Below, in pieces: positions 2,799 through 61,589 of a stretch of 64,000 nucleotides of DNA. Below the pieces are notes generated by a model. That model was not told where the DNA came from, ran no database searches, and saw only the letters and a list, made by a program, of their open reading frames with translations. The stretch's first letter is position 1; every line of letters begins with the position of its first letter. This DNA comes from an uncultured Thermoplasmata archaeon. GTDB taxonomy: Archaea > Thermoplasmatota > Thermoplasmata > Halarchaeoplasmatales > Halarchaeoplasmataceae. The stretch lies in contig CAYWJQ010000005.1 of the NCBI GenBank assembly GCA_964458595.1, positions 85,298 to 149,297 of the forward strand. The letters run 5' to 3'. Made by a program: the position numbers and the translations under genes.

Positions 2799-3458
2799 TC
2801 AGTCTTCAGAGTAGGGGATATCTAAGAACTCCGCTACCTTTTCTACTCCTTCTCCTTTCTTGGCGTTGGTTTCTATAAGGGTTCCGTGAGGGTTGACTTC
2901 TTCGTAATCGTTCTCTATAACTTCAAGATCGACGTCCATCGGTTCTGCAAGATCTACTTTATTTAGTACGGTAAGATCGGATCTCGAAAAGATAAGAGGG
3001 TGTTTTCTGATCATATCGTCACCTTCGGTCACCGAAACCACAACGACTTCGGCCTCGGTTCCGAGTGGAAAATCTACCGGACAGATCAGGTTGCCGACGT
3101 TCTCTATGAAGAGGTAATCCAGTCCAGCTAAATCTAAGTCCTCGAGGCTGTGAGCCACATAGTGGGCGTCTAGATGACAGTCTTTACCCGTGTTGATCGC
3201 TACGGCGTCCATATCTTTTTCTTTGAAACGCCGATAATCGTCCTCTCCGTTGAGGTCACCAGCTATAGCGCCAACTTCTTCATCTTCAAGCCCTTCTCGA
3301 AGCCTCTCTATCAAGGTGGTCTTTCCGGAGCCTATAGCTCCTAAAATATTGAAGGTCCGCACTCCTTTTTCCTCGAACATCCGGTTGTTCTCCTCGGCGA
3401 TCTCCTGATTTTCTTCTAGAATCTCCTTTTCCATATCCATATGACTGACTTTGTGCAT
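2799..3458 (-). CDS. hypB: Ni-metallochaperone GTPase, HypB/UreG family
   Basis: P-loop GAIGSGKTTL, the CHLDA motif, ENVGNLICP and NKVD (G4), all of which fit the HypB family. Confidence 0.75.
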   Translation of the reverse strand: MHKVSHMDMEKEILEENQEIAEENNRMFEEKGVRTFNILGAIGSGKTTLIERLREGLEDEEVGAIAGDLNGEDDYRRFKEKDMDAVAINTGKDCHLDAHYVAHSLEDLDLAGLDYLFIENVGNLICPVDFPLGTEAEVVVVSVTEGDDMIRKHPLIFSRSDLTVLNKVDLAEPMDVDLEVIENDYEEVNPHGTLIETNAKKGEGVEKVAEFLDIPYSED

Positions 3459-18869: not shown

Positions 18870-19009
18870 GGTTTGAGAGGTGACTATACAGTATAAAAAA
18901 ATTATCTAGATTTTGTAGTCAGATATGCAGATTATTGGAAGGTCGATCTCGCTCGCTATAATATACAAACGGTAAATTTTTATAAGCTATTCCTACATCA
19001 CGACCTATC

Positions 19010-19810
19010 ATGCCAGACCTGAATATAGTGGTGCTTATCAAAGAAGTACCCGATATTGAGAACGTAAAGTTCGATAGAGAGAAAGGCAGGATAGACAGAA
19101 GTTCTGCTGAAGCCGAACCTAATCCTTTCGATCTCAACGCTTTAGAAGAAGCGGTGAAGTTGAAGGAAGAACTCGGTGGCAAAATAACGGTATTGAGTAT
19201 GGGCCCGTCAAAGGCAAAAGAGACTTTGAGAGAAGCACTATCGAGAGGGGCTGACGAGGCTATACTCCTGACGGACAAAAACTTCGCCGGATCGGACACT
19301 TGGGCGACTTCTTACACGCTCGCCGCCGCTGTAGAAAAGATCTGCGATTACGACCTGATATTGTGTGGAGAGAAAAGTGTTGACGGAGATACCGGTCAGG
19401 TCGGGCCGGAGATAGCCGAGATATTGGGCATACCACACATCGCGTTCGTCAACGAAGTGAAGAAAAGAGGAAAAGAAAAGATAACGGTCGGTTCCGAAAC
19501 TTGGGACAGGAGTTATGTTAGAGATATCGAATATCCCGGCTTGATAACCGTCACCAAAGACGTGAATGAACCAAGACTCCCTTCACTGCAGGACAAGTTA
19601 GACGCTAAGAACGCCGATATCGAAGAATGGGGTGTCGATGAACTTGACGCAGGAGAAAAAGACATGGGTGCATCCGGTTCTCCTACAGCAGTGGTGAACA
19701 TAGAAGTTCCCGAGAAAAAAGGAAGGAAAAGTAAAATCTTCGAGGGTGAAACGGAAACGGCGGTCAAAGAACTGCTAAACGAGTTGGAAAAAGACGTGGG
19801 AGGCATCTAA
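19010..19810 (+). CDS. etfB: Electron transfer flavoprotein beta subunit
   Basis: 266 aa. IVVLIKEVPD, NPFDLNALEEA and the remaining EtfB fold motifs are present. Confidence 0.85.
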   Translation: MPDLNIVVLIKEVPDIENVKFDREKGRIDRSSAEAEPNPFDLNALEEAVKLKEELGGKITVLSMGPSKAKETLREALSRGADEAILLTDKNFAGSDTWATSYTLAAAVEKICDYDLILCGEKSVDGDTGQVGPEIAEILGIPHIAFVNEVKKRGKEKITVGSETWDRSYVRDIEYPGLITVTKDVNEPRLPSLQDKLDAKNADIEEWGVDELDAGEKDMGASGSPTAVVNIEVPEKKGRKSKIFEGETETAVKELLNELEKDVGGI

Positions 19811-19811
19811 G

Positions 19812-20798
19812 ATGGCGTACGGTCCGGAGAAAAGTTCTGGAGTTTGGATACTCGCGGAACAGCAAAAGGGAAAGATTCACCCTGTAACTTTTGAGCTTTT
19901 GCAAAAGGGTAGGGAATTATCGGATGATCTCGATACTAACCTCACCGCCGTCTTATGTACTCCAGATAAGGAAAAAACTCAAGAATTGATCTATAGAGGA
20001 GCAGATAGAGTCATTTTGGTGGAAGACGAAAATTTTGACGAACCCGATGAATCGTTCTTCAAGGAGAATATCGTTGAATTGATTGAAAACGAAAAACCGC
20101 ATATCTTTTTGATAGGAGCTACGAATTTCGGTAGATCTTTAGCTCCGAGGATAGCGGCGGCTTTGGAAACAGGTCTGACCGCCGACTGCACCGGGTTAAG
20201 GATCAAAGACGGAGACTTCGTTCAGATCCGACCCGCTTTTACTGGCAATATCCTCGCACACATATCTACTGACAGATGCCCAAAGATGGCGACCGTGAGG
20301 TACAAGGAGTTCGAAGAAAGCGAAAGAGATACTGAAAGAGACGGAAAAATCGTCCAGAAAGCACCTCTAGAAAAAAAAGAGGATGATGGTATAAAAATCA
20401 TAAAGGAAATAGTCGAAGAAAGTGTAAATATTCAGGATGCAGAAGTGGTCTGTTCGGGAGGAAGAGGTCTTGAAGATCCAGATGATTTTGAACTTATAGA
20501 AAAGTTAGCCTCCGCTTTGGGCGGAAAAGTCGGATCGAGTAGACCATTAGTTGATGAAGGCTGGATAAGCAGAGATCACCAAGTTGGATACAGCGGGAAC
20601 CGAGTCAAACCAAACATATACATCGCCTGTGGTATTTCTGGGGCGCCTCAACATCTCGCCGGTATGAAAGAATCGGATATAATAATAGCGATAAATAAAG
20701 ATCCTTCAGCACCTATTTTCAAGCACGCGGACTACGGCATCGTGGGTGATCTTTATGAAGTGGTTCCCGAGCTGATAAAGCAGATAAAAGAAAGATGA
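19812..20798 (+). CDS. etfA: Electron transfer flavoprotein alpha subunit
   Basis: 328 aa with the FAD-binding C-terminal domain (VCSGGRGL, IYIACGISGAPQHLAG). Its start overlaps the etfB stop. Confidence 0.85.
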   Translation: MAYGPEKSSGVWILAEQQKGKIHPVTFELLQKGRELSDDLDTNLTAVLCTPDKEKTQELIYRGADRVILVEDENFDEPDESFFKENIVELIENEKPHIFLIGATNFGRSLAPRIAAALETGLTADCTGLRIKDGDFVQIRPAFTGNILAHISTDRCPKMATVRYKEFEESERDTERDGKIVQKAPLEKKEDDGIKIIKEIVEESVNIQDAEVVCSGGRGLEDPDDFELIEKLASALGGKVGSSRPLVDEGWISRDHQVGYSGNRVKPNIYIACGISGAPQHLAGMKESDIIIAINKDPSAPIFKHADYGIVGDLYEVVPELIKQIKER

Positions 20799-22022
20799 TC
20801 ACTTGACTATAGGCACCACGTTGTTTGCCTCATCCACATCGACGATGTGGGGTTCTTTTTTAGACACGCATTCTTTAACTTCGTCTAAAGCCTCATCTAC
20901 GCTATCGAACGGTTCACAGAAGCAGTTCTCTATTATTTCATCATCAAGGTCACTGACTATGAACAGAGAGTGATCTTCTAAAAATTTGAGGATGTTGGTG
21001 GCTTTGTGTCCACCGAACGGATAATCTCCATAAACTTCATCGATTATCTCATCGCGATCGTCGGAAGAGGACAAAAGATCGTAAAAAGTTCTTGGTCCTA
21101 TACCCTCGTAACACTCGCTGACCATTATCAGTACGCCACCATCTCGACAGATCTGCTTGGTATTTTCGAAGCTCTTGAACGATTGGTACAGATTTTTAGT
21201 GCCCGGTTCCGCCGTCCTAGCTATCACGATATCCGCTTTTTGACTTACTTCGGCGGTGAAGATATCTTTAGCAGTTTCGATCAGCTCATCGAAAGAATAG
21301 AAGAAATCGCCAGCTGAAACTTCGTAAACTTTTTCCGAAGTGGAAACGCTGTTTATACTCGATATCTTGCTCTCTAGATGGTCGATTATCATCTCAGCGG
21401 CTTCCAAAGCGTCCAGATTGATCGGATTTTCATCCAATGAAAGAGGTAAAGAATTTTCATCTAAGGAGAACTCATGGTTCTCGACAATAGTGTCCCAGTG
21501 GCATACTCCGGGTAGGAGAGATTTCCTACCTCCCGTAAAGCCGGCAAAGTAATGCGGCTCGACGGAGTTGATATTAATTATCCTATCGTAACCTAAAATA
21601 TTCTTATCTGCCTTTACCGGAGTTCCTCGACTGGTCTCGCCGATCTCGATATGTTCGTTCTCTTGACAATCATGGATGATCGTTTTAGATTCCAACTCCT
21701 CGTAATATTTACCCAATATCTTCTTCAAGCCTTCCTCCGTGGGAGGATCGTGAGTACCTGTGGCCACAATCACGTTCAACTCCCGGTTGAAGAGATCCAT
21801 CCCATTCTCTTCGAGATGTTCATCTAGAGTTTCCAGAAACAGAGATGTCGGTGTGGCGCGCTTGAAATCGTTCACTATGAAAAGCAGGCTATTTTCACCT
21901 ATAAAATCGGCGAGAGACTCATGATCTGAATTCAATAGTTCCTCATAATTTTTTTTGATCTCTTCTTTATTCATCCCTTCAGCGGTTCGATCTAAGCCTA
22001 TTTTTTCTATCTCATCATCCAT
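20799..22022 (-). CDS. larA: LarA-family (lactate racemase-like, DUF2088) nickel-pincer enzyme homolog
   Basis: 407 aa. NDFKRATP, HYFAGFTGGRKSLLPG (candidate cofactor-tethering Lys) and TGTHD are characteristic of the LarA family. Confidence 0.7.
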   Translation of the reverse strand: MDDEIEKIGLDRTAEGMNKEEIKKNYEELLNSDHESLADFIGENSLLFIVNDFKRATPTSLFLETLDEHLEENGMDLFNRELNVIVATGTHDPPTEEGLKKILGKYYEELESKTIIHDCQENEHIEIGETSRGTPVKADKNILGYDRIININSVEPHYFAGFTGGRKSLLPGVCHWDTIVENHEFSLDENSLPLSLDENPINLDALEAAEMIIDHLESKISSINSVSTSEKVYEVSAGDFFYSFDELIETAKDIFTAEVSQKADIVIARTAEPGTKNLYQSFKSFENTKQICRDGGVLIMVSECYEGIGPRTFYDLLSSSDDRDEIIDEVYGDYPFGGHKATNILKFLEDHSLFIVSDLDDEIIENCFCEPFDSVDEALDEVKECVSKKEPHIVDVDEANNVVPIVK

Positions 22023-22043
22023 CCTTTCACGATCCTGATATGA

Positions 22044-23510
22044 TCAAATTTTGATATGCTCTTCTTCCATCTCTTCGTCCTTTGAGATGAGCTTTCCCGG
22101 ATTCAATATATGGTCGGGATCGAAGGTGTTCTTTATCCCGTTCATCAGCTGCAGCATCTTGTCGCTTTTGAATTTTCTCAGCTCCGGCTTTTTGATTAGA
22201 CCTATACCGTGTTCACCGGTGATCTCTCCGCCCATTTCTACCGCGGTTTCGATCCATCTCTCTCTAAGACTCTCGACTTCATCCCAGTCGATATCCTCAT
22301 CAGGCAAATTACCTTCGATATGAACGTTACCGTCTCCGGCGTGTCCGAACGCGTAGAAAGTCCCTTCTACTTCGGACTCATCAAATATCTCTCTAGCTTT
22401 CGAGATGAATTCGGGTATCTTGGACGGAGGAACTACGAGATCTCCAGAGCGGTGGCCTGTCACGTTTCCTTCTTGGATCACTTCAGCTACACCTTCCCTT
22501 ATCTTCATTATCTTGTTCATCTCTTTCCGTTTTGTAGCGAGGAAGGCGTCGAGTGCTCCTTTTTCCTGACACACTTCCATGATCTTTTGAGCTTTTTCTA
22601 GTATCTCGTTTTCTTCCTCTCCGGTGACGATTATCATCAAGGTCGCTTCCCCTTTTTCAGCGGGCCAGCTCTCACCGACTTTGTCTTCACCGCTAGAGAT
22701 CGTTTCTCTTTCTAAATATTCTATTCCCGCAGGAGTGATCCCGCTTCTCAGTATTTCAGGCACGGCATTAATCGCGTTTTCACCTGATTCGAAGGGGAGT
22801 ATCACAAACTTAGATTCTTCGGAGGCCGGATAAAGTCTTAAAATCGCTTTTGTTATTATACCTAAAGTCCCTTCACTGCCTATCATCAGATGGAGTAAAG
22901 AATATCCCGTGTTATCCTTCAATAGTTTTCCGCCCAGCTCCATGATCTCTCCATCTGGAAGTACGACTTCTAGACCTTTCACGTAATCTCTCATGACGCC
23001 GTGTTTTAGGGTCGCTTCTCCTCCCGCGTTGACCGCAATAGTTCCACCGATCTGAGAGTCTTCCGTGGTGGGATGTATGGGAAGTGTAAGCCCTTTCTCT
23101 TCTACCTTTTCCTTCAATTTTTCCATCGGAACACCGGCGGCTACTTCCACCATCAGGTTATCTTCGTCCACATCTACCTTATCATCCAATCTTTCCAACG
23201 ATAAGCCGACACCGCCGTAGACGGGGATCATACCTCCCATCAAGCCGGTCTTTCCGCCGATCGGGGTAACGGGAACGAGATTATCGCTGGCCAATCTCAT
23301 TATCTTCGATACTTTTTCTGAAGAGTTGGGTTTTACCAATACCTCCGGATATTTTCCTTTAACTTCCGCAGTCGAAAGCTCGTCATGGGTATAACTATCC
23401 ATGAGGTCTTTATCCGTGATAACAAAATCCGAACCGCATATATTTTCCAATTCGTTGATGATCTCTTCGTCGACTTCGTTATATTTTGGCCTTTCATCCA
23501 TCAAAATCAC
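22044..23510 (-). CDS. glcD: FAD-linked oxidase, GlcD/D-lactate dehydrogenase family
   Basis: 488 aa with a PCMH-type FAD-binding domain (PIGGKTGLMGG) and an FAD-oxidase C-terminal domain (GHAGDGNVH). Confidence 0.8.
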   Translation of the reverse strand: MILMDERPKYNEVDEEIINELENICGSDFVITDKDLMDSYTHDELSTAEVKGKYPEVLVKPNSSEKVSKIMRLASDNLVPVTPIGGKTGLMGGMIPVYGGVGLSLERLDDKVDVDEDNLMVEVAAGVPMEKLKEKVEEKGLTLPIHPTTEDSQIGGTIAVNAGGEATLKHGVMRDYVKGLEVVLPDGEIMELGGKLLKDNTGYSLLHLMIGSEGTLGIITKAILRLYPASEESKFVILPFESGENAINAVPEILRSGITPAGIEYLERETISSGEDKVGESWPAEKGEATLMIIVTGEEENEILEKAQKIMEVCQEKGALDAFLATKRKEMNKIMKIREGVAEVIQEGNVTGHRSGDLVVPPSKIPEFISKAREIFDESEVEGTFYAFGHAGDGNVHIEGNLPDEDIDWDEVESLRERWIETAVEMGGEITGEHGIGLIKKPELRKFKSDKMLQLMNGIKNTFDPDHILNPGKLISKDEEMEEEHIKI

Positions 23511-24645: not shown

Positions 24646-25262
24646 TAGTGGACTCGTCAGAAGCTAAGCTTCTAACTGCCCATTAAAACAAGTTTTGAGG
24701 AAAAACAACACTCTTTCCTCAACTCACTCGTTCAAAGAACTCGTGATTTAATGGACCCATCAGAATCAAAGATTCTAACTAACCATTTTTCATAGAAAAA
24801 TGGACCCAGCGGGACGAGGGAATTTTTGTAGAAAATTGCCGAGCAAGAGGAATCTTTGATTCCTCGTGTTTCAAATCCCGCGGTGCACTGAGCGGATGCG
24901 AAGTGGACCCGTCAGAAGCGAAGCTTCTAACTGCCCATTAAAACAAGTTTTGAGGAAAAACAACACTCTTTCCTCAACTCACTCGTTCAAAGAACTCGTG
25001 ATTTAATGGACCCATCAGAATCAAAGATTCTAACTAACCATTTTTCATAGAAAAATGGACCCAGCGGGACGAGGGAATTTTTGTAGAAAATTGCCGAGCA
25101 AGAGGAATCTTTGATTCCTCGTGTTTCAAATCCCGCGGTGCACTGAGCGGATGCGAAGTGGACCCGTCAGAAGCGAAGCTTCTAACTGCCCATTAAAACA
25201 AGTTTTGAGGAAAAACAACACTCTTTCCTCAACTCACTCGTTCAAAGAACTCGTGATTTAAT
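24646..25262. repeat. Tandem direct repeat of a 255-bp unit in about 2.4 copies, containing hairpins and degenerate copies of the tRNA-Ala 3' end
   Basis: Units start at 24648, 24903 and 25158 (period 255). Copies A and B differ at 2 positions. Copy C runs directly into the tRNA-Ala gene at the shared motif aatggaccca. Confidence 0.9.
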
Positions 25263-25362
25263 GGACCCAGCGGGATTTGAACCCGCGGCCTTCACCTTTC
25301 TTGCCACCACATTATTCCAGTAGGATGCAAGGGTGACGATCTGCCAACTGATCTATGGGCCC
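25262..25362 (-). tRNA. tRNA-Ala (anticodon UGC) with a 28-nt canonical intron between positions 37 and 38
   Basis: Manual fold of the reverse complement: acceptor GGGCCCA/TGGGTCC with the G3:U70 Ala identity pair, D-arm GATC/GATC, anticodon stem TCACC/GGTGA, loop CT-TGC-A, intron TCCTAC...GGCAAGAA whose GGCAAG segment can pair with the anticodon-loop CTTGC (BHB-like), T-arm GCGGG-TTCAAAT-CCCGC and discriminator A. Confidence 0.8.
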
Positions 25363-29514: not shown

Positions 29515-30456
29515 TCATCTAAGATCCTTGATCGCTCTCAACAGTTCGTCCTCTTCTACAGACTCGATCTTTTCATCTTCGAACAGAACGCTAGTTTCCC
29601 CTTCTTTCACCTCGCCGATCACTTTTCCCTTATCCAGATCGAATTCCTCGGGAACGGTCGCTAGAAGACAACCTGAGGATATCAGATTGAAAGGATCAAG
29701 GTCGAGTTTTTCACAAATCTCCACTGTCAGGCCCTTCAATTCGGGCTCTTCATTGATAACGAATTCGTTCTCGGAAGCCTGAGCCATCTCGTAGAGTCCC
29801 TGAAGTATTCCTCCTTCGGTGGGGTCGTGCATCGAACTTACTTTATCTTTGATTTCCAGCGCGTGATTTACAACACTTATATCATATCTTAGAGACTTTG
29901 CCTTTTCGACTGTGCTTTTTTCCACGCCTCTAGTCTCCAGTTCCTCACCAAAATCGGACGCCAGTATCCACGTGCCTTCTAAAGCGGCTTCGTCTATCTG
30001 GATTATCTTATCACCCGGTTCCGACCCGCAAGTGAAAACGGGCTCTTCGGTGATCCCCATCATCGTCGTAGTGACCAGCGGTTTATCTATGACGTCGATC
30101 ATCTCCGAGTGACCGCCTATTATCTCTATGTTGAGTTTCCGAGAGGCATCGTGCAGTTCATCAATCATTTCTTCCAGCTTTTCTCTAGAGTAACCTGTCG
30201 GAAGCTCGAGGGTCGGAAGAGCCCACCGCGGCGAAGCTCCGCAGACCGCTATATCGTTCGCTGCTATATTTATAGCTAACCATCCAATATTATCTACGGC
30301 GCCCGAGATAGGGTCGGAATGCGCTATCAAAAATTCGTCCTTTATCTTAAGAACCGCGGCGTCTTCTCCATAAGAAGGACCCATCACGACGCTCTCGTCC
30401 TCTATCCCTTTATCAAATATAAGTTCGTCCATCTCTTCTTTACTCAATTTAGCCAT
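29515..30456 (-). CDS. AIR synthase-related (PurM/ThiL/HypE superfamily) protein, a paralog of thiL
   Basis: 313 aa with N-terminal GEDAAVL and a PurM-like C-terminal domain. There is no HypE PRIC C-terminus. Confidence 0.55.
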   Translation of the reverse strand: MAKLSKEEMDELIFDKGIEDESVVMGPSYGEDAAVLKIKDEFLIAHSDPISGAVDNIGWLAINIAANDIAVCGASPRWALPTLELPTGYSREKLEEMIDELHDASRKLNIEIIGGHSEMIDVIDKPLVTTTMMGITEEPVFTCGSEPGDKIIQIDEAALEGTWILASDFGEELETRGVEKSTVEKAKSLRYDISVVNHALEIKDKVSSMHDPTEGGILQGLYEMAQASENEFVINEEPELKGLTVEICEKLDLDPFNLISSGCLLATVPEEFDLDKGKVIGEVKEGETSVLFEDEKIESVEEDELLRAIKDLR

Positions 30457-37044: not shown

Positions 37045-37809
37045 ATGACCGAAAAGGAAAGCAAATTCAAGGGGTTAAGAAAGTTCAATGCGTTTATGGC
37101 CGTTTTACATTTTATACAGGGAGCTTTGATGGTATATCTGAGTACGGATTTCGCCATCTCGATTACCAGTTCATACATGGCGGGACCGCCGGGCACTGAA
37201 GAAACCGCTACAGTCGTACTTTTCGATGTACCGGTAGGACTGGCAGTCGCCGGTTTTCTCTTCATCTCCGCTATAGCCCATTTCTCACTGTCAACTTTCG
37301 CATACGATTGGTATAAGAGGAATCTCAAGAACCACATAAACAAAGCCAGATGGGTAGAATATTTCTTCAGCAGCTCTCTGATGATAGTCATAATAGCGAT
37401 GCTCGTTGGCTTCACTGATATAGGCGTACTTATCGCTTTATTCCTGGTGAACGGTTCGATGATACTGTTCGGATGGCTGATGGAAGCCTACAACCAGAAT
37501 ACTGAAAAAACCGTGTGGTCACCTTTCATATTCGGATGTATAGCAGGGGCGGCTCCATGGATAGCTATCGCTATCAGACTTTTCACGGCGATCTCAGAAT
37601 CCCCGGTAGAGGTGCCTAGTTTCGTTATATGGATATTCGTCTCTCTGTTCATATTCTTCAATATATTCGCCCTAAACCAGTTACTGCAGTACAAGAAAGT
37701 GTGGAAATGGGAAGACTATCTCTACGGCGAGAAGATGTACATCGTGTTGAGTTTGGTTGCGAAATCGGCATTGGCCTGGCAAGTTTTCTCCGGAACTTTA
37801 GTGGGATAA
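37045..37809 (+). CDS. Heliorhodopsin (inverted-topology microbial rhodopsin)
   Basis: 254 aa with 7 TM. It shares diagnostic blocks with characterised heliorhodopsins: NGPPGT-like AGPPGT, N(K/R)ARWVEY, SMILFGWL, WIAIAI and the TM7 retinal-Lys region YIVLSLVAKSALAWQVFSGTL. Confidence 0.8.
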   Translation: MTEKESKFKGLRKFNAFMAVLHFIQGALMVYLSTDFAISITSSYMAGPPGTEETATVVLFDVPVGLAVAGFLFISAIAHFSLSTFAYDWYKRNLKNHINKARWVEYFFSSSLMIVIIAMLVGFTDIGVLIALFLVNGSMILFGWLMEAYNQNTEKTVWSPFIFGCIAGAAPWIAIAIRLFTAISESPVEVPSFVIWIFVSLFIFFNIFALNQLLQYKKVWKWEDYLYGEKMYIVLSLVAKSALAWQVFSGTLVG

Positions 37810-54088: not shown

Positions 54089-57000
54089 TTATCCCTCCAA
54101 TTCCTCGCTAACATCATCTTCCGATTCGAGCGCTTCCGGACCCCCTTCGCTTTCCAGCGGAGAGGATAATTCGAGAGAATCTTCTATCTCTTGGAACTCT
54201 TCGTTCATCTTCATCTCGACCTCGCTCGATTTCTCTTCCCATTCATCCTTGGGTATGTTCGATAATCTGCTTATATCCTCTAACACGTCCATCTCGGACA
54301 AAGTATCTACCATGACTCCTTCTTCGATCGCCTGTTGGCCGGTTTCATAGAACTCCATCATTATTTGTAACATCCTGAACTGTTTTTCCGGGGAACAGAA
54401 TGTATCCACGTCGTGGAAAGCGTTCTGCTGTAGGAAATCCTCCCTGATTATCCTAGCGGCCTGAAGAGCGAACTGGTCCGAGGGAGGTAGAGCGTCGGGA
54501 CCTACAAGTTGAACGATCTCTTCGAGTTCGGACTCCTTCTCCAAGAGCCGCATCGTTTCTCTACGCAGGTCTTTCCAGTTCTCGTTCACGTTCTCGTCCC
54601 ACCAGTCTCCCATCTCATCCAGATAAAGTGAATAAGATGTCAACCAGTCGACAGCCGGGAAGTGACGTTTGTTCTTAAGCTCGGTATCCAATGCCCAGAA
54701 GACCTGAACTATCCGGAGGGTGTTCTGGGTGACCGGTTCGGAGAAATCACCGCCGGAAGGACTAACGGCTCCGATGACCGATATGGATCCTTCTCTATCG
54801 CCGTGCAGTTTGCACATGCCGGCTCTCTCGTAGAATGATGCCAGTTCAGAAGCTAGATAAGCCGGAAAACCTTCTTCTCCGGGCATCTCCTCGAGCCTCC
54901 CGGATATCTCTCTCAGAGCTTCGGCCCATCTCGAAGTCGAATCGGCCATGAGAGCGACGTCGTATCCCATATCTCTGTAAAATTCCGCTATAGTGATGCC
55001 GGAAAAAACCGAAGCCTCTCTCGCCGCGACGGGCATATTACTGGTGTTAGCTATGAGAACGGTCCTCTTCATCAAAGGTTCCCCGGACCATGGATCCTCC
55101 AGTTCTGGAAAATCTCTGAGAACTTCTGTCATCTCGTTGCCCCTCTCCCCGCATCCGACGTAAACTACTATATCGGCATCGCTCCATTTGGCCAATTGGT
55201 GCTGAATTACCGTGTTATGGAGGAACATAGGTGCGTTACCTCCCACAAAGTTGTGAGTATCCGGCACCGTCAAGTCAAAAACTTCCTGAGATTCTTCTTT
55301 CATCTCTATCGATTCAACGGGATCAGGTAAAAAATGATCTAAATGGTTCTCTGCTATGCTCTTCAAATCTTCATCTGCGGTCATAGAGGAGAATTTCCTA
55401 AATATTGGAACACTCATCTTTTCTTCCTGAGTGGTGTAATTCGCTACCTTTATTCCATTTTCTTTGAATTCTTTTCTAGGAACGCCGCTGTTTTCGAATT
55501 TCTCCTGCACCATTTCGGGGGAGACATTTACCGCATTCACTCCTCTAAAATGTTCACTGTCCTTTTCTAGATATCTTTTTATTTTTTCGTACTTTTGATG
55601 ATCTATAGATGTTTTTTCGTAGAAATTTTCTAGTTCTTCCCCAGAAACCCTTATCCTGTAGCTTTCATTAGCTCGGGTCTCTTTCGAGGAGAGTCTCGGC
55701 AGAACGGCGATCCTTGTCAAAGCATAAGTGAGGTCGCTAGCCATCTCTTCACTCGAAGTATTTATTTCGACTTCATATTTAGAAAAACTCCCATCGGCTA
55801 GATAATAACCTCTTACAAAGGCAGCTATCGCCTCTTCTCCGCTTTTAAAGACTTTGCTCGGGATGCTACAATTTCTCGACTTGACTTCTTCCGGGAATCC
55901 TAAAGATACTAGCAGATCCCTAAGTGTTTTACAGTTTACTTTTACTGAATCAACCGTTCGAGCGTGCTCCCTTTCTGCTTCTAAATCGAAAAGTTTGTAG
56001 AATAGTTCTTCTACTCTTGACAAAAGCTCTTCATCGTTGTTGTAAAAGTGTATCGAAGTCGGCTTTAAACTGCCGTCTCCAAGCAAAAGACCTAATAGTT
56101 CCGCAAAGTCTTCATCGATATTTTCTGGGACCTTTATGGGAGTAGACCTCCTCTCACCTTTTACTTTCCTTATCTGATGATCGATTTCGTTCTGTTCGAA
56201 GATATCCTTAGCAACTTTGACTTTTGGCCTATTCCTTCCAAGGGCATATTCAGTAAGAACGTCCTCGCTTACATCCAATCTCTCAGCTAACTCCTTCCTA
56301 CTGCCTAATTTCTTTTCTAGTTCATCTATGCTACTAATTACCTTTTCAAAGTCTTCACCATGGACCCTTTTCTCTGGCAATAAGTCTACTGTAGTCAATT
56401 TTTGCTCTCCTGTTTTTTCGTCCAAAGAGAGTTTTCTTGGAACCAAGAGAGTGTCCTCTTGTTCTATCTCTCGAGCTGGTTTCTCCACGATCTCCATCTC
56501 AGGGGTCAGAACAAACAGTTTATGGACTGGCGTAATCTCAACTTCACGACCCGACTTGGTTTTTATCACGACGGTCGAATCAGTCTTACCTTTGTAAAGA
56601 CACGTCGCCTCTTTTTCAGATATCTCTCCATCATCCATGGATAATATCTCGAGGGGGCGGTCTAGTTCGATCAATTCTTCCTCACCGTCTACTTTCTTCT
56701 TCCCTTTTTCCTTATACTTTTCGTATATATCTTCTATAGGTTCTTTTGATCCATCAGCGAATAGCATGGGTGTATCGCCAGTTACGCATTTCCCGGTCCC
56801 GAAGCCCCCGGGGATAGCGGCTGTTCCGCCTTTAGCGATGGGGAAGAAAGTATCCAATACTCTCTGACCGGTAACGAGGAGTTCGCCCGGCTGTTTTTTA
56901 TCTTGTATCGGTCTGCCTATCCTGACAGGCCATCTCTGCTTCATGCTTATCTCTTCTTCACCATCTTTGTTCTCTAAAACCGCTATAGTCTCGTTGATCG

Positions 57001-57556
57001 TATAATCGCCTTCAGGAACTATCTCCTTGATAGTACCTTCAGTATCAGGAGGCACCATCACCTTATGATCTACGGTAGGAGTCTCTTCGACTATACCTAA
57101 AATATCTCCATGTTCGACCTCTTCCCCTTCTTCAGCTTTGGGTTTGAACTCCCATTCTTTTTCCTCGTCCAGTGGAGATACGTCGATACCTCTTCGGATG
57201 AAATCGCCGGTCTTCTCGACTATACTCTGAAGGGGTCTCTGGATGCCGTCATAGATCTGCTCTATGAGACCTGGGCCCAGTTCTAAAGATAAAGGTTCGC
57301 CCGTTCTCTTCACTGGTTCTCCCGGCTTGACTCCGCCGGTTTCTTCGTACACCTGGATAGTCGCGACGTCTTCTTCGAGCTCGATAACTTCGCCTATAAG
57401 ACCTTCTTCACCGACTTCTACGACCTCGTACATCTCCACGCCCTGTAGGTTATCGGCCTCTACGACCGGGCCGGCCACGTGGATAATCCTACCTTCACCC
57501 TCTTCTTCATCGGGTTTTTCGATCTTGCTTATACTTTCCTCAGCTTCTTCTACCAT
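54089..57556 (-). CDS. atpA: A1AO (V-type) ATP synthase catalytic subunit A, containing an intein
   Basis: The 1155-aa ORF gives exteins of 256 plus 374 aa with A-subunit motifs. The P-loop GGFGTGK|C is interrupted, and the extein resumes at HN|[10 protein letters not shown]. Confidence 0.95.
55214..56788 (-). mobile_element. Intein (525 aa) with a LAGLIDADG homing-endonuclease domain, inserted in the atpA P-loop (the VMA-a site)
   Basis: Begins with Cys right after GGFGTGK and ends ...FLHN, followed by Thr. Two LAGLIDADG blocks ([11 protein letters not shown] and GYYLADGSF) lie between the Hint N- and C-terminal splicing blocks. Confidence 0.85.
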
Positions 57557-59690: not shown

Positions 59691-61589
59691 TCACATAAAT
59701 CCTAGGAAGACTATTATGAAGATAGCTATCAAGAGACCAAATATCGCGAAGGTCTCGGACATCACACTGAAGATCATCCCTTTACCGAACGTCTCTTCAC
59801 GCTTCGATACGGCGGCTATCGCCGAACCCGATGTTATACCTTGACCGACACCGGAAACACCGGCGATACCTATAGCCAAGCCGGCTCCTACTGCTGCGAT
59901 ACCCATCTGGACTCCGGCTCCTGCGGGATAAACCTGGCTGAGCATACCGCTGAAGACCATCAGTAATATCGCGATCAGCATGCCGTAGATGGCTTGCGTT
60001 TCGGGAAGTACCGAGAACACCATACCTCTACCGAACATCCCTTCGTCTTCAGCTACGGTCGCTATACCGCTGGCGGAGGCTATGCCCTGTCCTATACCGG
60101 AAAGACCGGCGACGCCCACGGAAAGACCCGCACCGACACCGACTAATCCAAGGAACACCTGTATATCAGAGGAAGCATTCACCAGGCCCGCCTGTCCTAA
60201 CAGTCCGCTAAATATCATCAATAATATCGCGATCAGCATGCCGTAGATAGCCTGCGTTTCGGGAAGTACTGAGAACACCATGCCTCTGCCGAATATCTCT
60301 TCCTTTTCCGCAACACTGCCTATCCCACTGGCGGCCGCGATACCTTGTCCTATACCGGAAAGACCGGCGACACCGACGGCAAGACCGGCGCCTATACCTA
60401 TCAGACCTAGACTGTAACCTGATATACCTTTCATAGCTTCGATAGCCGAACCGCCGAGTAAACCAGAGAATACCATGAGCAGTATCGCGATCAGCATACC
60501 GTAGATCGCCTGAGTCTCTGGAAGGACTGAAAACACCATGCTCTTACCGAATAGATCCTCATTCTCCGCGACACCGCCGATACCCGCTCCGGCGGCTATG
60601 CCTTGACCTATACCGGACAACCCCGCGACACCGACCGCTAAGCCTGCTCCTATCGATATGACGGCTAGGCCTAAACCTTTAGGACCGAGCATGGCTTCGG
60701 AGATCCCGCCTCCGAGTAAGCCGGTGAAGACCATAATGAGTATACCTATCAGGAGACCGTAGATGGCTTGCGTTTCGGGAAGTACTGAGAACACCATACC
60801 TCTACCGAACAGTTCTTCTTTCTCGCTGTAGGCGGCGATACTGCCTGATGCGGCGACGCCCTGTCCGATAGCCGACAGGCCAGCGACACCGACGGCAAGT
60901 CCAACCCCCACGGAAGTTATCCCCACGGGGAGCGAAAGATAGTCTCCCCCGCCGATTATCCCCGTGAACAACAACAATAACACCGCGGTCAGCAGACCGT
61001 AGATGGCTTGAGTTTGAGGTAAAGCCTGGAATACGAGACATTTGCCGAATTTGCCGGGTTTTTCGGCTATAGTTCCAGCACCGGCGGCGCCCGCTATACC
61101 TACACCTATTCCGGCCCCCATCCCGGCGATACCGACTGCTAGACCCGCACCGAGCGCGGTAAGGAAGGTCCCTCTCTCATCTTTCACGGCTTCCACATTT
61201 AAAGTGTCAGTATATGTTTTATCACCGTAAGTGACCCTAAGAGTGACGTTGAAAACTTTCTTATTATTGTCTTCTCCAAGTTTGAACATATGGTCGACCT
61301 TTTTTCCGGTAGTGCTCGAACCGTTTTCAAATATCCATTCGATCTTGGACGGTTCTCCGGACGGAGTATCCTTAGAGCGGTAAGATAGAGTAAGATTGTT
61401 GCCTTCGCTCTTTTTTATGTAAAGCTTGGTATGGTTACCTACGTCTTCCCCGTTGACCAAGATATCCACTTTACCCTGCTCCTGTCCCTGGGCGTTTCCA
61501 GTCGGCGCTATACCGAGAAGCAAGATCAGAGCGACGACCATTATTGATATGTAACTTATCTTCACAGCTTTCCCTTTCAATAAATTCAT
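59691..61589 (-). CDS. atpK: A1AO ATP synthase proteolipid subunit K (c), sextuplicated (6 hairpins), with an N-terminal signal peptide and an ectodomain of about 110 aa
   Basis: 632 aa. There are six repeats of the c-subunit hairpin (...FG(R/K)GMVFSVLPETQAIYG(M/L)LIAILLMVF...). Five of them keep the ion-binding carboxylate (PETQ or SETF) and the first has PQTQ. The N-terminus is MNLLKGK + hydrophobic + NAQG, followed by a Thr/Lys/Asn-rich domain with NxT/S sequons. The nucleotide sequence shows ~250-bp repeats with long identical tracts. Confidence 0.8.
   Translation of the reverse strand: MNLLKGKAVKISYISIMVVALILLLGIAPTGNAQGQEQGKVDILVNGEDVGNHTKLYIKKSEGNNLTLSYRSKDTPSGEPSKIEWIFENGSSTTGKKVDHMFKLGEDNNKKVFNVTLRVTYGDKTYTDTLNVEAVKDERGTFLTALGAGLAVGIAGMGAGIGVGIAGAAGAGTIAEKPGKFGKCLVFQALPQTQAIYGLLTAVLLLLFTGIIGGGDYLSLPVGITSVGVGLAVGVAGLSAIGQGVAASGSIAAYSEKEELFGRGMVFSVLPETQAIYGLLIGILIMVFTGLLGGGISEAMLGPKGLGLAVISIGAGLAVGVAGLSGIGQGIAAGAGIGGVAENEDLFGKSMVFSVLPETQAIYGMLIAILLMVFSGLLGGSAIEAMKGISGYSLGLIGIGAGLAVGVAGLSGIGQGIAAASGIGSVAEKEEIFGRGMVFSVLPETQAIYGMLIAILLMIFSGLLGQAGLVNASSDIQVFLGLVGVGAGLSVGVAGLSGIGQGIASASGIATVAEDEGMFGRGMVFSVLPETQAIYGMLIAILLMVFSGMLSQVYPAGAGVQMGIAAVGAGLAIGIAGVSGVGQGITSGSAIAAVSKREETFGKGMIFSVMSETFAIFGLLIAIFIIVFLGFM

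Follow-up and report, generated by a model that had tools for sequence, protein, structure and literature searches.

The stretch of DNA analysed here, which we call the window, comprises 64,000 nucleotides of contig CAYWJQ010000005.1 (positions 85,298 to 149,297) from an uncultured Thermoplasmata archaeon (assembly GCA_964458595.1). Four genes within 4.5 kb of it encode the two subunits of an electron-transferring flavoprotein (Etf), a homolog of the nickel-dependent lactate racemase LarA and a flavin-dependent dehydrogenase, and we tentatively read them as one system for the oxidation of a 2-hydroxy acid. On the forward strand, etfB (19010–19810) encodes the small Etf subunit of 266 amino acids (Pfam ETF, 151 bits), which appears to be of the group 2, bifurcating kind that holds two flavin adenine dinucleotide (FAD) molecules. 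It is followed by etfA (19812–20798), which encodes the large subunit of 328 amino acids (Pfam ETF and ETF_alpha). On the reverse strand lie larAH (20799–22022), the product of which is a 407-residue homolog of nickel-pincer-nucleotide-dependent 2-hydroxyacid racemases with a malate-racemase-like signature (Pfam Lar_N and LarA_C), and a glcD/lctD-like gene (22044–23510) for a predicted FAD- and metal-dependent D-2-hydroxyacid dehydrogenase (Pfam FAD_binding_4 and FAD-oxidase_C). The latter has 488 residues when it is read from a GTG codon; the NCBI gene call gives 485 residues from the ATG at 23501, and this ATG is probably the true start.

The gaps between neighbouring genes on the same strand are 1 nt (etfB/etfA) and 21 nt (glcD/larAH), which is consistent with two convergent operons of two genes each. 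At 20798/20799 the stop codons of the two converging genes, etfA and larAH, meet with zero bases between them, so that any transcription terminator must sit inside the opposing gene. A TATA-like box, TTTTTATAA, can be read from the sequence at 18977–18985 (+ strand), about 25 nt 5' of the etfB ATG. It is a putative archaeal promoter, from which a leaderless etfBA mRNA would be transcribed.

The window has a GC content of about 45% and contains the archaeal markers EF-1alpha, A-type ATPase, PolD and TFB. The four proteins of the module are acidic, with isoelectric points of 4.3–4.8, and identical proteins are present in NCBI assembly GCA_905333805.1. The closest relatives are labelled Thermoplasmatota, Thermoplasmata and Ca. 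Saliniplasma, and the halophilic order to which these relatives belong has been named Ca. Halarchaeoplasmatales or Haloplasmatales. A preliminary description of this DNA had delimited the four open reading frames and had called the genome archaeal and halophile-like. Its coordinates are exact, the Pfam architectures agree with its gene assignments, and the markers, the acidic proteins and the relatives point to the same kind of host.

The LarA homolog retains all residues that bind the nickel-pincer nucleotide (NPN) or take part in catalysis: Asp72, Arg75, His108, His174, Lys184, His200, Tyr294, Gln295 and Lys298 in L. plantarum numbering. Lys184 tethers NPN, His200 is a ligand of the nickel, and His108 and His174 are catalytic. 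The catalytic His and Lys residues on which the preliminary description had made its assignment depend are all in place, and judged from these residues the protein very probably works as an NPN-dependent racemase or epimerase.

Its specificity positions 175, 176, 297, 358 and 359 are occupied by Tyr, Phe, Phe, His and Lys. Published rules assign Phe175, Phe176, Trp358 and Glu, Gln or Thr359 to lactate racemases and Tyr, Phe, His/Gln and Thr to 2-hydroxyglutarate racemases, while malate racemases have His or Gln358 together with Lys359 (the GHK motif) and variable residues at the first two positions, Lys359 binding the second carboxylate (PMC11770544; PMC7583248). The motif is present in the window protein as GGHKA (His339 and Lys340 in its own numbering) and is at least 90% conserved in an alignment of 40 sequences of the clade. 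The Phe175/Phe176/Trp358 signature is missing, and so is a two-residue segment of α14 (Thr353 and Pro355), which leaves this helix with the length seen in Mar2. Among the four main LarA-family models of NCBIfam, the malate racemase model LarAH6 gives the highest score (289 bits), followed by LarAH5 (224 bits, cut-off 462) and LarAH10 (206 bits, also under its cut-off), and the lactate racemase model Ni_dep_LarA scores lowest (184 bits, cut-off 460). The relatives that were tested likewise miss the LarAH6 and LarAH5 cut-offs, with 277–396 bits. Of the enzymes with a solved structure, Mar2 matches best (167 bits, compared with 105 bits for LarA), and a neighbour-joining tree, which contained three reference enzymes only, puts the protein into the same clade as Mar2, where it falls into a halophile subclade together with homologs from Saliniplasma and Methanonatronarchaeia (bootstrap 73). 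Both assayed malate racemases, Mar1 and Mar2, are without lactate racemase activity (PMC7583248).

These features bear on the reading that the preliminary description had given, in which the locus is a lactate-utilization module: the LarA homolog would racemize L- and D-lactate, and an LctD–EtfAB complex would confurcate the oxidation of D-lactate to pyruvate. We consider this unlikely. The LarA homolog belongs to a clade other than that of the lactate racemases, as indicated by His358 and Lys359, the missing signature and Mar2 as the best relative, and its description as a lactate racemase was not upheld. Speaking for lactate, the residues of the loop and of helix α11 (Phe176 and Phe297) are hydrophobic as in LarA, the lactate-racemase group is promiscuous according to published work, and bacterial group 1 LarA proteins are accompanied by Etf and COG0277 genes in about one third of cases (PMC7583248, Table S1).

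The same positions could also be read in favour of a different acid. Tyr175, Phe176 and His358 fit the 2-hydroxyglutarate racemase pattern in all but position 359, and malate racemases are reported in the literature to epimerize tartrate as well. A system of the same architecture could thus act on 2-hydroxyglutarate, tartrate, glycerate or an aromatic 2-hydroxy acid, perhaps depending on the lineage. This strikes us as rather improbable for the window; position 359, at which the fit fails, holds the lysine that the published rules treat as the determinant specific for malate.

Outside the Thermoplasmatota, the closest LarA homolog is that of Ca. Methanohalarchaeum thermophilum (L003, 8001–9236), which is 49% identical and has the same GHK signature. 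In this halophilic methanogen the gene is solitary, without Etf or GlcD genes. The homology suggests exchange of larAH among halophilic archaea.

The best solved relative of the GlcD protein is the lactate dehydrogenase subunit LctD of A. woodii (7QH2_C; 314 bits, 37% identity). Lower scores are obtained with a protein resembling D-2-hydroxyglutarate dehydrogenase (D2HGDH; 218 bits), glycolate oxidase (211 bits), mouse LDHD (208 bits) and human D2HGDH (167 bits). The protein does not group with the glycolate oxidases; such a grouping is what the preliminary description had named as evidence against its reading. An identity as glycolate oxidase was rejected on the lower score and on the absence of GlcE and GlcF genes. 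In the alignment with 7QH2_C the catalytic core and the metal ligands are intact (Arg328, Asp346, His377, His384, Glu422 and His423).

The substrate pocket is another matter. The literature defines which residues of LctD form its side-chain pocket and entrance gate (PMC9232219); we examined Leu80, Leu332 and Tyr386 as the pocket for the lactate methyl group and Gly138, Met155, Gly329 and Leu332 as the gate. Compared with LctD, subsite B and the gate carry the changes G138T, M155E, G329E, L332A, E344S and Y386E, and the loop 341–344 reads GHRS instead of the acidic EMDE, so that only Leu80 is retained among the listed pocket and gate positions. In D-lactate enzymes subsite B is small and hydrophobic, and structures of human D2HGDH and mouse LDHD indicate that whether an enzyme takes small hydrophobic substrates (D-lactate and glycolate) or dicarboxylates is determined by the equivalents of residues 332, 344 and 386 (PMC7801405; PMC10589216). 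At these three positions the window protein matches neither pattern. Its pocket is enlarged and polar, with a basic pair (His342 and Arg343) in an otherwise very acidic protein. The residues that bind the distal carboxylate in D2HGDH (Thr390, Lys401 and Asn443) correspond to Ala332, Ser344 and Glu386, whereas the D2HGDH-like control 3PM9 has Ser, Lys and Asn. An identity as D2HGDH was rejected, since the Lys, Asn and Thr are all absent.

For lactate, it can be said that LctD and, for the small Etf subunit, LctB are the closest characterized proteins; the altered methyl pocket and gate point the other way. The same pocket, being larger and polar, would suit substrates bigger than lactate, and among halophile subclades the residues at 332, 344 and 386 vary (Ala/Ser/Glu, Gly/Ser/Gly and Pro/Ser/Ser). 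Both of these points speak for the other 2-hydroxy acids listed above.

The Etf subunits resemble bifurcating rather than canonical Etfs. EtfB has its best solved relative in LctB of A. woodii (7QH2_B, 218 bits), with other bifurcating Etfs at 158–192 bits and canonical ones at 88 bits or less. For EtfA the scores are 284 bits with CarE, 266 with T. maritima, 257 with A. fermentans, 255 with C. difficile and 248 with LctC, as opposed to 165 bits with human ETFA. The segment Asp125-Gly126-Asp127-Thr128 of EtfB retains Gly126, the counterpart of Gly123 of A. fermentans EtfB, which provides space for the second FAD. Bifurcating Etfs have this glycine without exception, and in its place the canonical AMP-binding ones, including the ETF of the Fusobacterium lct-type cluster, have a bulky residue (PMC12630350). 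The DGDT glycine is kept in all nine archaeal EtfB orthologs examined. The choice between a second-FAD and an AMP-binding signature, which the preliminary description had posed, thus falls to the former.

We also compared the subunits with the group 2 motifs RxGV and GxxGSPTxV of the small and RPxFGG of the large subunit (PMC10734219). EtfB contains GASGSPTAV, which fits the second motif, and has RSSA in place of RxGV with the arginine kept. EtfA has RPAFTG in place of RPxFGG and keeps Arg140, an arginine that T. maritima requires for bifurcation (PMC10734219). Overall, the Etf is probably of the two-FAD type. An N-terminal [4Fe–4S] ferredoxin domain is not found in EtfA, as had been described before: the alignment begins at residue 72 of LctC, and a CxxCxxCxxxC motif occurs nowhere in the window.

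The missing domain raises the question of a simple Etf shuttle without confurcation, in which the dehydrogenase would pass its electrons through the Etf to a membrane-bound Etf:quinone oxidoreductase or another acceptor, as in the D2HGDH–ETF pair of bacteria and mitochondria or with the Fusobacterium ETF. A precedent exists in F. nucleatum, where Ldh works with a canonical ETF (PMC12630350), and in the A. woodii enzyme truncation of the EtfA ferredoxin domain abolishes confurcation (PMC9232219). The two deviating group 2 motifs and the absence of a ferredoxin gene from the window, as judged from a search for its Cys motif, are in agreement with a shuttle, and the organism also encodes a heliorhodopsin. 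Against it stand the conserved EtfB glycine, the scores of both subunits, which with bifurcating Etfs are far above those with canonical ones, and the retained arginine of the RPxF motif. Moreover, neither an Etf:quinone oxidoreductase nor an acyl-CoA dehydrogenase is encoded near the module. We therefore think it improbable that the Etf acts as a shuttle only.

At least ten related contigs carry the same four genes side by side, in three different orders, and this persistence argues that their clustering is not due to chance. In the order of the window, glcD–larAH faces etfA–etfB, and this arrangement is shared with contig L096, the LarA homolog of which is 76% identical. In the Saliniplasma-type order (L004) all four genes lie on one strand as etfB–etfA–glcD–larAH. 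The soda-lake type (L014, L017, L085–L088 and L097) has a malic enzyme gene, a larE gene in some cases, larAH and glcD facing etfA–etfB. The GlcD, EtfA and EtfB proteins of the soda-lake contigs are 68–75% identical to those of the window, but for the LarA homologs identity drops to about 37%, and these fall into different subclades. A racemase thus seems to have been kept or re-recruited independently, more than once, beside the same dehydrogenase–Etf unit.

The soda-lake malic enzyme scores 317–332 bits with the NADP-malic enzyme model, and its gene lies directly upstream of larAH on the same strand. In two soda-lake Thermoplasmata clusters (L017, 5107–8712, and L014, 8338–11074) it is the first gene. 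In L017 the gene between malic enzyme and larAH codes for a genuine LarE (349 bits, cut-off 150); the protein is 60–64% identical to LarE of Firmicutes, which suggests lateral acquisition. A malic enzyme gene also abuts members of the LarA-homolog clade in L009, L049 and L056, and association with malic enzyme is the kind of evidence that Desguin et al. used to predict Mar2. In a Korarchaeota metagenome-assembled genome (MAG; L094, 447–9404) a phosphoenolpyruvate carboxykinase (PEPCK) gene lies just upstream of a frameshifted LarA homolog (Gln358/Lys359), which is followed by etfB–etfA–glcD–glcD. The tandem GlcD paralogs have distinct pockets, with Gly332/Glu386 in the first and Tyr332/His386 in the second; the first thus resembles the window GlcD in its small residue at 332 and its Glu386. 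Malic enzyme and PEPCK as neighbours suggest C4 dicarboxylates rather than other 2-hydroxy acids, and the malic enzyme of the sister clusters likewise counts against lactate.

A contig of the halophile clade provides a contrary hint. In L093 (625–6443) a glcD–etfB–etfA operon lies next to genes for indolepyruvate:ferredoxin oxidoreductase (alpha subunit, 598 bits) and an FrhB-like gene, which may indicate aromatic 2-hydroxy acids as the substrates there and supports a substrate that depends on lineage. The racemase signature and the GlcD pocket also shift jointly: the window and soda-lake proteins combine His358/Lys359 with Ala332/Glu386, while those of Saliniplasma combine Val297/Glu358/Thr359 with Gly332/Gly386. 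In sister lineages, racemase and dehydrogenase may have been adapted jointly to other 2-hydroxy acids. Gene content, conserved catalytic residues, signatures and synteny are direct observations.

In the wider LarA-homolog clade Etf genes are seldom nearby. A contig scan with the LarA homolog gave at least 80 clade contexts, mostly from relatives of 35–40% identity and without the closest genomes among the matches listed; among these matches, orthologous GlcD and Etf genes occur together in only two of 80 species-representative loci. A metagenome scan with GlcD gave eight loci. GlcD relatives of about 45% identity from Korarchaeota, Thermoproteota and a further MAG also adjoin etfBA. Relatives at this level of identity were sought as a control of the lactate type (L100 with Etf, L098 without), and no LarA of the lactate-racemase type and no permease was present in the contexts of L098–L100. 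In the Aerophobetes contig L099 (1–8425) such a relative occurs without Etf, beside a GntR/FCD regulator, several malic-enzyme reading frames and fumarase fragments.

Domain and family searches together with a reading of all translated reading frames revealed no LarB, LarC, LarE, malic enzyme or lactate permease in the window, and no transporter was found in it. The lack of larB, larC and larE had been pointed out before, as had a HypB at 2799–3458 (−), which is genuine (253 bits, cut-off 121). The absent permease weighs against lactate. A search with the L017 LarE as query gave no match on the window's own 167-kb contig (167,029 bp), and the sole informative match, P0315, lies on a soda-lake contig of 101,083 bp. 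A protein resembling AIR synthase at 29515–30456 (−) reaches only 98 bits with the HypE model (cut-off 252), and hydrogenase structural genes are absent from the window. The neighbouring threonine aldolase gene, GNAT gene and gene for a 230-residue membrane protein are not conserved with the cluster in relatives.

From these data we infer complex formation, confurcation and the nature of the substrate. The module would encode a soluble three-subunit flavoenzyme, in which a D-specific FAD- and metal-dependent 2-hydroxyacid dehydrogenase docks onto a two-FAD EtfAB. The nickel-pincer racemase would be an accessory that interconverts the two forms and gives the D-specific dehydrogenase access to the L-isomer. 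By homology with Ldh–EtfAB of A. woodii, the hydride of the substrate would be passed to the dehydrogenase FAD and from there, through the shuttle FAD of EtfA, to the FAD of EtfB. There an electron from reduced ferredoxin or flavodoxin would join and NAD+ would be reduced (confurcation); the reverse reaction would be a bifurcation. With such coupling it would be feasible for NAD+ to oxidize a redox couple at about −170 to −190 mV. Bcd–EtfAB and EtfABCX bifurcate without an EtfA ferredoxin domain of the A. woodii kind. Since this domain is absent here, the low-potential carrier would need to bind at the EtfB flavin itself, in the manner of Bcd–EtfAB.

The substrate is probably malate-like, as judged from the GHK signature, LarAH6 and Mar2 as the best matches, the malic enzyme and PEPCK contexts, the remodelled GlcD pocket and the joint change of racemase and pocket. 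The likeliest compound, in place of lactate, would be malate, which would be converted from the L- to the D-form and then to oxaloacetate, or else a closely related 2-hydroxy acid that is polar or has a second carboxylate. We put the chance that the locus as a whole is an Etf-coupled confurcating D-2-hydroxyacid dehydrogenase with a nickel-pincer racemase, of malate type, at a little short of even. The more specific proposal of a confurcating or bifurcating D-malate dehydrogenase, in which GlcD–EtfAB couples the oxaloacetate/D-malate pair, two NAD+/NADH and ferredoxin while a malate racemase gives access to the L-malate pool, is conceivable yet somewhat unlikely. The preliminary description had seen a lactate module like LctBCD with a racemase. 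The component set and the affinities to LctB and LctD bear out that likeness, while lactate as substrate is not supported, in view of the GHK signature, the preference for the LarAH6 model over the lactate racemase model (289 against 184 bits) and the pocket.

Several observations weigh against a malate-type system. The LarA homolog stays under every NCBIfam equivalog cut-off (at best 289 bits, where 500 is required for LarAH6), and its raw identity to Mar2 (29%) is barely above that to LarA (28%). At two of the three specificity regions its changes are hydrophobic, with Phe176 for Lys173 and Phe297 for Gln293 of Mar2. The dehydrogenase is without the Lys401 and Asn443 of D2HGDH, and it also lacks Lys386, which is found in GlcD-like proteins beside other LarA homologs of the GHK type (L030, L038, L043 and L084). 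Glu386 would disfavour a second carboxylate unless it were paired with His342/Arg343, and the closest characterized dehydrogenase overall is still LctD, a lactate enzyme. With regard to confurcation, two of the group 2 motifs deviate and EtfA is without the ferredoxin domain on which the A. woodii reaction depends. Finally, malic enzyme, larB, larC, larE, a ferredoxin gene and a transporter are all absent from the window.

Four further features of the window are recorded here. A heliorhodopsin gene lies at 37045–37809 (+; NCBIfam HeR, 349 bits, cut-off 100). The proteolipid (K/c) subunit of the A/V-type ATPase (59691–61589, −) is a 632-residue fusion of four to six tandem K-subunit repeats with an extra N-terminal domain of about 130 residues, an unusual architecture for a rotor ring. 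The catalytic A subunit of the A-ATPase (54089–57556, −) has 1155 residues and an apparent intein, the Cys...His-Asn boundaries of which were identified by eye in the translation. A tRNA at 25262–25362 (−; Rfam, 101 nt, 59 bits) is missed by ARAGORN in its default mode and emerges from an intron search as an intron-bearing tRNA-Ser(UGA).

A three-subunit design like that of LctBCD occurs in halophilic Thermoplasmatota, and Etf-linked GlcD genes are also found in MAGs of Korarchaeota and Thermoproteota. We found no literature on lactate or Etf metabolism in halophilic Thermoplasmatota. To our knowledge, Etf-dependent confurcating lactate dehydrogenases have been characterized in anaerobic bacteria only. 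If the substrate were malate, flavin-based confurcation would extend to a central C4 metabolite and the widespread, physiologically unexplained malate racemases would gain a role. D-Malate in particular would be a new substrate class for Etf-based bifurcation, and the enzyme would be the first Ldh-type complex in Archaea. The three lineages in which racemase and pocket have apparently changed together form a natural set on which the published specificity rules for LarA could be tested.

Among known systems, Ldh–ETF–Bcd of Fusobacterium nucleatum shares the clustering of a GlcD-type D-hydroxyacid dehydrogenase with etfBA. Its EtfB has Phe in place of the marker glycine and binds AMP, and its cluster encodes Bcd; none of this applies to the window. 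The D-2-hydroxyglutarate/D-malate dehydrogenase D2HGDH, which uses ETF as its electron acceptor, has the VAO/GlcD fold, the core of metal and histidines, an Etf partner and a polar subsite B in common with the window enzyme. The differences are Ser, Glu and Ala in the window GlcD for Lys401, Asn443 and Thr390, a score with human D2HGDH (167 bits) far below that with LctD (314 bits), and an Etf of two-FAD instead of canonical type.

Mar2/LarAH6 of Thermoanaerobacterium thermosaccharolyticum (6D6Z) and the predicted malate-racemase groups 4–6 share with the window racemase the NPN-binding and catalytic residues, the GHK motif and a Tyr after the catalytic His, and Mar2-clade relatives of the window protein adjoin malic enzyme. 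Set against this likeness are the low identity to Mar2, the two Phe residues in place of its Lys173 and Gln293 and a score under the family cut-off.

The closest parallel is Ldh–EtfAB (LctBCD) of A. woodii (7QH2) with LctF, the racemase of the lct operon. The component set, the gene clustering, the catalytic core and the EtfB glycine for the second FAD are common to both. Here, however, the host is an archaeon, EtfA has no [4Fe–4S] domain and the dehydrogenase has an altered pocket and gate; the racemase belongs with Mar2 and the GHK proteins and not with the lactate racemases, and the lactate permease and GntR regulator of the lct operon have no counterpart. A survey from 2018 placed homologs of the bifurcating lactate dehydrogenase in Bacteria only (PMC6085437). 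In the published survey of LarA contexts, Etf genes accompany the true lactate racemases of group 1, whereas the GHK group of malate racemases is found with malic enzyme or with COG0277 and a COG0247 Fe–S oxidoreductase, not with Etf (PMC7583248). A GHK-type racemase combined with a dehydrogenase like LctD and an Etf of the two-FAD type makes a hybrid that this survey does not describe.

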